Virus record (IMG/VR): IMGVR_UViG_2737471820_000002
DNA from: a virus
Taxonomy: Duplodnaviria; Heunggongvirae; Uroviricota; Caudoviricetes
Strand: one strand, 5' to 3'
Length of the DNA stretch: 43,472 nt
Position 1 is the first letter of the stretch. Every line of letters starts with the position of its first letter. Shown here piece by piece: positions 1,824 to 2,648 of this stretch. The notes under the pieces are model-generated. The model was not told the origin of the DNA and ran no database searches. It saw only the letters and a list, made by a program, of their open reading frames with translations. Made by a program: the position numbers and the translations under genes.

Positions 1824-2648
1824 TTGCAATGTTCATTAATATACGTCTCACAAATAATTCACAGATATTGCAAAATGGATATTACTGAGTTTCCTTCTGG
1901 AGTAATTGAACACCTTGGCTGGTATGTATACCGATTGATTGATCCTAGGGACGGAAGCACCTTCTATGTAGGGAAAGGCAAAGGTAACCGCGTATTTGCC
2001 CATATGCGCGGTGAAGTGGCAGCGGCTGATGATGACGAGTTACTGAGCAACAAGCTAAAGCAAATCAGAGAAATAAGATTAGCGGGACTTGAAGTTATCC
2101 ATGTCATCCATCGACATGGAATGACTGATGAAAAGACGGCGTACGAAGTTGAAGCAGCACTTATTGATGCCTACCCTGGGTTAACGAATATCATGAATGG
2201 TGCTGGCAGCAATGAATTCGGCGCCGCGCATGTCAAAGAGTTGATAGCAACATATCAACCCGAAACCATAACATTTCATCATAAAGCATTAATGATTTCC
2301 GTTAACAGAAGTGCAAAGGATTCAGAGCTTTATGATGCGGTTCGATTTAGCTGGCGCATTAATGTCTCTCGCGCCAGCCAAGCAGAAGTCATTCTTGCTA
2401 CTGTAAGGGGGATCGTTCGAGGGGTTTTCATTGCTGATAAATGGCTCAAATCAACACGTGAAAATTTCCCTACGATGAAATACTGGGACGAGGATCCGGA
2501 CTTTGAGGCAACACAAAGTTCTCGCTATGGTTTTGAAGGTCGAGAAGCCCCACCTGAAATAGCAAATCTTTATCTTGGAAAAAAAATACCAGATGAATTA
2601 AGAAAAAAAGGAGCTATGTCCCCGGTCCGTTACTCACCTAATTTTTGA
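1824..2648 (+). CDS. GIY-YIG domain nuclease family protein (possible start at 1875)
   Basis: [29 protein letters not shown] is a typical GIY-YIG motif; an alternative ATG at 1875 gives MDITEF...; no clear SD for either start. Confidence 0.6.

Follow-up and report, generated by a model that had tools for sequence, protein, structure and literature searches.

Vassallo et al. (2022) obtained the GIY-YIG nuclease system PD-T4-3 by functional selection, a GIY-YIG nuclease being among their new systems (PMC9519451); the source strain of PD-T4-3 is ECOR68 according to Liu et al. (PMC12923530). The structures of the enzyme, CMoRE, from E. coli O157:H7 (PDB codes 9U75 and 9U8D) and from APEC O1 (PDB codes 9U7U and 9U7Z) were presented by Liu et al. 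(Nat Commun 2026; PMC12923530). In the same work the plating of phages T2, T4 and T6 was cut about 10^5-fold by CMoRE without abortive infection. The native promoter of the O157:H7 gene sufficed for protection of about 10^5-fold, and the APEC O1 protein gave weak defence from its own promoter (PMC12923530). CMoRE degrades T-even genomic DNA and PCR products containing 5hmC or 5ghmC, while DNA with C or 5mC is spared; it restricts T4(hmC) but not T4(C), and it binds modified DNA only (PMC12923530). The cleavage occurs at CN11/N9G with 2-nt 3' overhangs, and two 5hmC sites are required (PMC12923530).

Mutants of Tyr17, Tyr19 and Tyr31 lose both defence and nuclease activity (PMC12923530). An acidic loop between helices alpha-2 and alpha-3 blocks the active site, and the 4A mutant of this loop is toxic and cuts unmodified DNA (PMC12923530). 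A tetramer is needed for defence, which is abolished by the double substitution V92S/L96S, and in the co-crystal with 5hm-dCTP the main-chain oxygen of Tyr127 contacts the 5-hydroxyl of 5hmC (PMC12923530). In the native clinical strain NILS69, PD-T4-3 is one of only two active systems and is specific for Tevenvirinae, and many predicted defence systems were without activity in their native host (bioRxiv 10.1101/2024.12.20.629700). A 48%-identical homologue from Capnocytophaga degrades modified T4 DNA but spares that of T4-GT7; high doses of it cut Mom-modified Mu DNA as well (PMC12366544).

Several other described systems can be compared with CMoRE. The enzymes of the PvuRts1I/AbaSI family share with it a single polypeptide with separate reader and nuclease, specificity for 5hmC and 5ghmC over 5mC and C, and cutting at a fixed distance between two modified cytosines. 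The geometry of PvuRts1I, CN11-12/N9-10G, is similar to that of CMoRE; its reader domain is SRA-like and its nuclease fold is unrelated to that of CMoRE. CMoRE is not a member of this family, and for its reader, the C-terminal domain, no sequence or structural homologues are reported by the authors of the structures (PMC12923530). McrA (EcoKMcrA) of the cryptic prophage e14 is likewise a type IV, modification-dependent enzyme carried as single-gene cargo, and is the positional analogue of CMoRE: it lies immediately beyond pinE, at a prophage end with the ymfQ-stf-tfa tail-fibre module. By annotation and established knowledge, McrA is an HNH nuclease targeting methylated cytosine. The two are unrelated in sequence, and while McrA points in the same direction as pinE, CMoRE and pin are convergent. 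Homing endonucleases of the I-TevI type have the same GIY-YIG catalytic fold as CMoRE, and both occur in phage genomes. However, the I-TevI type has a sequence-reading DNA-binding domain and cuts unmodified intron-less or gene-less alleles, while CMoRE has a modified-base reader, an extra tyrosine (GIYxY) and the inhibitory acidic loop. The closest structural neighbour of the CMoRE nuclease domain is the N-terminal GIY-YIG domain of UvrC, in which the catalytic Arg and Glu are kept; UvrC, a large multidomain core repair protein, has neither the 15-residue acidic insertion nor the third tyrosine (PMC12923530).

The DNA considered here, referred to as the window, is the whole analysed stretch of 43,472 nucleotides. 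It is a prophage of E. coli with thrW as its integration site. The gene for tRNA-Thr(cgt), thrW, at 42029-42104 (minus strand) is the sole tRNA found in the window by ARAGORN, which gave none near the nuclease gene. An integrase gene is located at the right end, followed by a 417-aa open reading frame (42219-43472, minus strand) which from its position we take to be proA. In related strains the neighbours of the other prophage end are paoD and a LysR-type gene in truncated form. The genes for a Mu-like baseplate and tail are on the minus strand. The G+C content is 0.32-0.45 across positions 1-4000 versus 0.55-0.59 in the tail genes, and the low value fits accessory cargo. The order of genes in the far tip is: tail-fibre assembly gene, acyltransferase, remnant of the DNA invertase gene pin, nuclease gene, RelA/SpoT-like gene. 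The pin remnant is frameshifted and interrupted by an in-frame stop; its catalytic N-terminal domain is missing, and it is not part of the nuclease. In strains C7 and ST69 this same pseudogene is annotated by RefSeq as well. The acyltransferase gene may be an O-antigen-modifying cargo gene. The exact gene combination of this tip is absent from all complete E. coli genomes in the collection; its left part (1-2829) matches strain T16R and its right part (1678-6200) matches strain C7.

The nuclease gene of this tip encodes, almost certainly as judged from its sequence, the type IV restriction enzyme CMoRE (PD-T4-3), and the copy is intact. The identity of such proteins is already known, and the present one is a near-identical allele of the characterised and crystallised enzyme of E. 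coli prophages. The PADLOC model of PD-T4-3 (PDLC04031) matches with E=2.2e-140 and 464 bits over positions 1-256 of 256, and the PHROG 5356 profile matches the whole length of the protein with E=2.9e-143. Only two solved structures matched it: the O157:H7 CMoRE (9U75/9U8D; E=1e-172) with 254 of 257 residues identical, or 98.8%, and the APEC O1 CMoRE (9U7U/9U7Z; E=1e-150). The RefSeq protein WP_000355479.1, found in three strains, is exactly identical. The layout is that of a single gene with two domains (type I architecture), in which about 257 residues comprise an N-terminal GIY-YIG domain and a C-terminal non-Pfam domain, and every sequence-level test of CMoRE/PD-T4-3 membership gave a positive answer. 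The sequence-only reading of this DNA had named both homing endonucleases and defence nucleases as possible relatives; the full-length profile and PDB matches settle this in favour of the latter. Any uncertainty would concern the expression and the exact specificity of this allele and not the identity of the gene.

It is important to compare this allele with the two crystallised proteins. The length, the layout, the GIYxY-YIG motif, the acidic loop, the interface and 5hmC-contact residues and the pin-adjacent position at a prophage tip are common to all. Only three substitutions separate the protein from that of O157:H7: D55E, K169Q and H197N in the window. Glu55 and Asn197 occur also in the APEC O1 protein, while Gln169 is found in neither crystallised protein, both having Lys. 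The three substitutions, at positions 55, 169 and 197, leave Val92, Leu96 and Tyr127 unchanged. The left-hand context is different, with the RelA/SpoT-like gene and a duplicated hairpin in the window and a partial tRNA attachment fragment in O157:H7 and C7. A further difference is that the pin gene of the window is only a pseudogene.

An uninterrupted open reading frame was confirmed on the plus strand at 1824-2648, with its end at 2648. That a GIY-YIG nuclease is encoded here, as had been noted, is confirmed by the Pfam family LEM-3_GIY-YIG (E=2.4e-14, residues 28-110). However, the start of the protein is ATG 1875 (257 residues) and not TTG 1824 (274 residues), which lies 51 nt upstream and had been taken as the start in the sequence-only reading. 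A CDS of 774 nt from the ATG is annotated by RefSeq in every strain looked at, namely C7, EC17CM13 and T16R. The methionine encoded by this ATG is also the first residue of the crystallised protein and of the PADLOC and PHROG profiles, and when the two E. coli allele types are compared the homology begins exactly at this codon. The coding part of these alleles is 85% identical in amino acids, and the 51 nt upstream are only 43% identical. The codon differences between the alleles, 122 synonymous versus 38 non-synonymous, show that the gene is under purifying selection. The features of the locus are collected in Table 1.

Table 1. Positions of the features of the CMoRE locus in the window
Feature	Position	Strand	Basis and remarks
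CMoRE / PD-T4-3 coding sequence	1875..2648	+	257 aa plus stop; ATG 1875 start; profile, PDB and RefSeq matches
N-terminal GIY-YIG domain	1875..2219	+	boundary approximate; Pfam LEM-3_GIY-YIG aa 28-110, published crystal structures
GIYxY-YIG motif, G15-W-Y17-V-Y19 ... F30-Y31-V-G33	1917..1973	+	read from translation
Other catalytic residues	R39 1989-1991; E93 2151-2153; N105 2187-2189	+	translation
Autoinhibitory acidic loop D52-D53-D54-E55 (gatgatgacgag)	2028..2039	+	sequence and published 4A mutant
C-terminal modification-sensing domain, ~aa 120-257	2232..2645	+	boundary approximate; published 5hm-dCTP co-crystals
Y127 codon	2253-2255	+	within C-terminal modification-sensing domain
Candidate sigma-70 promoter, TTGTGA, 17-nt spacer, TAATAT	1814..1842	+	8/12 matches; by eye only
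Left hairpin copy	1644..1686	.	direct repeat; fold -26.2 kcal/mol, z=-4.3
Right hairpin copy (AAACCGCAG...CTGCGGTTT)	2668..2710	.	fold -14 kcal/mol, z=-1.9
Unique part of cargo cassette	1687..2683	+	absent from otherwise identical ST69 tip (blastn)
Pin/Gin-type DNA invertase remnant	2713..2933	-	aa 111-184 only; tblastn with PinE of locus L002
Acyl_transf_3 acyltransferase gene	3122-4213	+	Pfam 1e-25; where related prophages have invertible-segment alternative tail-fibre genes
Integrase gene	40851-42014	+	right end of window

The published key residues are all kept in the protein: Tyr17, Tyr19, Tyr31, Arg39, Asp52 to Glu55, Arg80, Val92, Glu93, Leu96 and Tyr127; Asn105 is there as well. Those which the publication tested are Tyr17, Tyr19, Tyr31, Arg80, Val92, Leu96, Tyr127 and the acidic loop. 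In an alignment of six homologues down to 33% identity, including copies from jumbo phages (33-46%), Tyr17, Tyr19, Tyr31, Arg39, Glu93 and Asn105 are invariant. The acidic loop reads DDDE in the present protein and in that of APEC O1, and DDDD in the crystallised O157:H7 protein. The non-GIY-YIG part comprises about 135-140 residues and not the approximately 170 that had been estimated. It had also been described as a region of unknown function, which is out of date: it corresponds to the 5hmC/5ghmC-sensing domain solved with bound 5hm-dCTP (PMC12923530). A domain search of this part, as had been suggested, gave no match in Pfam or NCBIfam, the Pfam hits being confined to residues 28-110, and its function is known from the published structure. 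The NCBIfam search with the whole protein gave no hit and no equivalog.

The mechanism was shown for the 98.8%-identical protein, and near-identity suggests that it would apply to the present copy as well. The protein would assemble as a dimer of dimers, and the C-terminal domains of this tetramer would bind DNA with 5-hydroxymethyl-cytosine or glucosyl-hmC and recognise two modified cytosines about 21 bp apart. The GIY-YIG domains, with Tyr17, Tyr19, Tyr31, Arg39, Glu93 and Mg2+ or Mn2+, would then cut between the two sites at CN11/N9G, leaving 2-nt 3' overhangs. The acidic loop Asp52-Glu55 positioned over the active site would spare the unmodified DNA of the host and the prophage. The expected outcome is direct degradation of incoming DNA of T-even-type phages and not abortive infection, so that the lysogen and its resident prophage would both be protected.

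CMoRE is found in 958 of the 5426 complete E. coli genomes (18%). Its records include 843 with at least 95% nucleotide identity and 119 in the 60-80% band; the sampled hits of this band have about 75% identity and represent the APEC O1-type allele. In all loci inspected (O157:H7, C7, EC17CM13, T16R and SF-468) the gene is located at a prophage tip just beyond pin or its remnant, and at least three different left-hand contexts were seen among these loci. Carriage on a plasmid was also considered. The record inspected, NZ_AP023209.1, is labelled as a plasmid and has a CMoRE of at least 99% identity; however, a fragment of a chromosome or an excised region is more probable than a true plasmid, because the chromosomal genes paoC and paoD adjoin the CMoRE gene.

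The gene is flanked by a direct repeat of 27 nt (1660-1686 and 2684-2710) with 85% identity between copies, the only repeat above chance, for which 0.01 matches per window would be expected. Each copy belongs to a hairpin. CMoRE and the pin remnant are convergent, and the right hairpin between them probably terminates transcription in both directions; the terminator scan of 1200-3200 called none, this hairpin having been passed over because its loop is longer than 8 nt. A search of window 1-4500 against Rfam (E<=1) found nothing, which places the hairpin element outside the described RNA families. A tRNA-like origin of the left hairpin was also considered and rejected, as neither Rfam nor ARAGORN gave a tRNA signal for it in the window.

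The empty state of this site is represented by strain ST69 (locus L003). Here the segments corresponding to window 1497-1688 and 2684-6200 are contiguous through a single 27-nt hairpin copy and CMoRE is missing (blastn). The occupied and ST69 tips differ by an indel of 1024 bp, composed of the unique part and one repeat copy. The presence/absence polymorphism that had been proposed as a test by comparative genomics is thereby found, both in the ST69 tip and in the count of 958 among 5426 genomes. A backbone element of about 100 nt (1590-1686) ends in the left hairpin; in L003 and in L009-L012 this element adjoins pin directly. In prophages L009-L012 the hairpin and about 60 nt to its left (in the window orientation) directly follow the pin stop codon, and the sequence beyond is variable; for this reason the hairpin is most likely the pin terminator and a part of the phage backbone. 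A 'capsid protein' pseudogene annotated by PGAP over about 1584-1670 in other strains looks spurious.

In O157:H7 and C7 the homology of the cassette extends from window position 1678 onward, and the cassette abuts the 3' half of a partial tRNA (L001 11968-12038 in C7; L006 about 5757-5815 in O157:H7). This fragment gives only a partial match to the tRNA clan of Rfam (30.9 bits), and we take it to be tRNA-Ser-like from its similarity to serU. It is probably a remnant of an attachment site. It is followed by an AraC regulator gene and then by an integrase gene, which is intS in C7 and encodes a tyrosine integrase in O157:H7; the arrangement suggests that a second element has integrated in tandem beside the remnant.

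From these few loci we infer that the cassette arose by recombinational exchange and not by homing or transposition. A CMoRE-bearing tip would have recombined with a tip of the thrW type, once within pin and once at the shared CGG(G)TTTC beside the hairpin. This recombination of two kinds of prophage tip would leave a duplicated hairpin around a cassette of about 1 kb with its own candidate promoter. The mobility that had been read from the flanking repeats is retained in the form of a recombinational cargo cassette, with the single hairpin of ST69 as the empty tip; a signature of a transposon or of homing was not found.

It is important to consider what else a GIY-YIG gene in this position could be. 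A free-standing homing endonuclease, spreading by cutting gene-less alleles which are then repaired by copying, would account for the clean polymorphism, and there is a weak match of the catalytic part to PHROG 314, 'homing endonuclease' (E=0.002); the homologues in jumbo phages are annotated as putative homing nucleases as well. However, Pfam (E<=1) gives no NUMOD, IENR1, zinc finger or HTH module, the C-terminal domain reads a modified base, and unmodified DNA is not cut (PMC12923530). A duplicated hairpin, of which the empty allele keeps one copy, marks the edges of the polymorphism and does not result from homing; moreover the gene occurs in at least three left-hand contexts and is not inserted in another gene. 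Homing is therefore very improbable. Even less probable is a housekeeping repair protein like UvrC, Cho or YhbQ. At only 257 residues, the protein is without UvrBC-interaction, RNase H-like, HhH or further domains in Pfam and without an NCBIfam equivalog. An orthologue of a repair protein with conserved chromosomal context was looked for, and what was found is an accessory gene of low-G+C cargo DNA, present in 958 of the 5426 genomes and at prophage tips in all loci inspected. The chance is similarly minute that the gene encodes the GIY-YIG nuclease of a type II restriction-modification system such as that of Eco29kI or Hpy188I, or is an orphan left over from such a system. GIY-YIG type II restriction enzymes do exist, but the open reading frames within 3 kb (RelA/SpoT-like gene, pin remnant and acyltransferase) include no methyltransferase, and the published enzyme works without a methylase, leaving unmodified DNA intact (PMC12923530).

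A different question is whether this CMoRE copy is silent or inactive cargo, either unexpressed from the prophage or disabled by the three substitutions, with nothing gained by the host. The consensus promoter scan with a threshold of 9/12 found no plus-strand site upstream of the gene, the candidate falling below this value with 8/12, and the 197 nt upstream are only 90% identical to the O157:H7 region. The candidate promoter and terminator rest on sequence reading and conservation, since the scans called neither. The weak defence given by the APEC O1 allele from its own promoter (PMC12923530) and the inactivity of many predicted defence systems in their native host (bioRxiv 10.1101/2024.12.20.629700) point in the same direction. 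On the other hand, the O157:H7 allele, whose native promoter gave the strong protection (PMC12923530), has exactly the same candidate -35/-10 stretch. The open reading frame is intact and identical to a widespread RefSeq protein, the codon changes between alleles reveal purifying selection, and PD-T4-3 is active in native NILS69 (bioRxiv 10.1101/2024.12.20.629700). Silence of this copy appears quite improbable, and an intact CMoRE is the preferred reading.

Full-length homologues of CMoRE with 33-46% identity are also found in lytic jumbo phages (the Serratia Moabite group, Pseudomonas OBP and Klebsiella N1M2), and another, with ParA as its neighbour, occurs in an E. coli phage of about 108 kb. 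The loci of such phage homologues are L013 2501-3265, L014 2492-3253 and L015 2456-3223, some of them annotated as 'homing nuclease'. The jumbo-phage proteins keep Tyr17, Tyr19, Tyr31, Arg39, Glu93 and Asn105 but have no acidic loop, which is in line with the published statement that 'most have' this loop (PMC12923530). The phage-borne homologues may have a role in competition of phage against phage.

The neighbouring gene of the cassette (1-1275, minus strand) codes for a protein of 424 residues and had been described as a RelA/SpoT-HEPN protein. The N-terminal RelA_SpoT domain is confirmed by Pfam (1e-13); the HEPN part is not, the Pfam search of this protein giving no HEPN hit, and an RNNLLH (Rx4H) motif was seen in the C-terminal region by eye only. 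Among solved structures it comes closest to small alarmone synthetases (E=1e-6), and the only PADLOC match is a weak one to PDC-S33 (2e-8). Found in just 3 of the 5426 complete genomes of E. coli, this rare cargo gene is uncharacterised and may have a defence or toxin function. A functional link between it and CMoRE was considered and rejected: the two are independent cargo because they occur in 3 versus 958 genomes.

The position beyond pin was surveyed in a small sample of nine prophage tips of the e14/Mu-tail type, with window 2650-2829 as the anchor and the cargo taken from RefSeq product names. This cargo is McrA in e14 of K-12, an AAA ATPase plus McrC in WCHEC035125, a DUF262 protein, which we take to be GmrSD-like, plus an APEC-type CMoRE in SF-468, a KAP P-loop NTPase in fS25a and a hypothetical protein in ECOR29; in LWY24 there is nothing. 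Four unrelated modification-dependent nuclease systems occur in the nine tips: McrA, the McrBC-like pair, the DUF262 protein with CMoRE, and CMoRE alone. This suggests that the slot beyond pin is a cargo hotspot rich in modification-dependent nucleases. It is possible, though we consider it rather doubtful, that the stretch from the pin-terminator hairpin to the prophage end is a dedicated exchange point with the hairpin as recombination anchor, and that the RelA/SpoT-like gene is an undescribed defence gene.

The phage range, substrate, cleavage pattern and crystal structures of CMoRE were published in 2022-2026, so the value of this gene as a discovery is small. The result is of use for annotation: the RefSeq names 'LEM-3-like GIY-YIG domain-containing protein' and 'hypothetical protein' should be replaced by 'type IV restriction endonuclease CMoRE (PD-T4-3)', with the start placed at ATG 1875. 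The maintenance of anti-T-even, modification-dependent nucleases in the slot beyond pin bears on the resistance of lysogens to therapeutic phages containing hmC.
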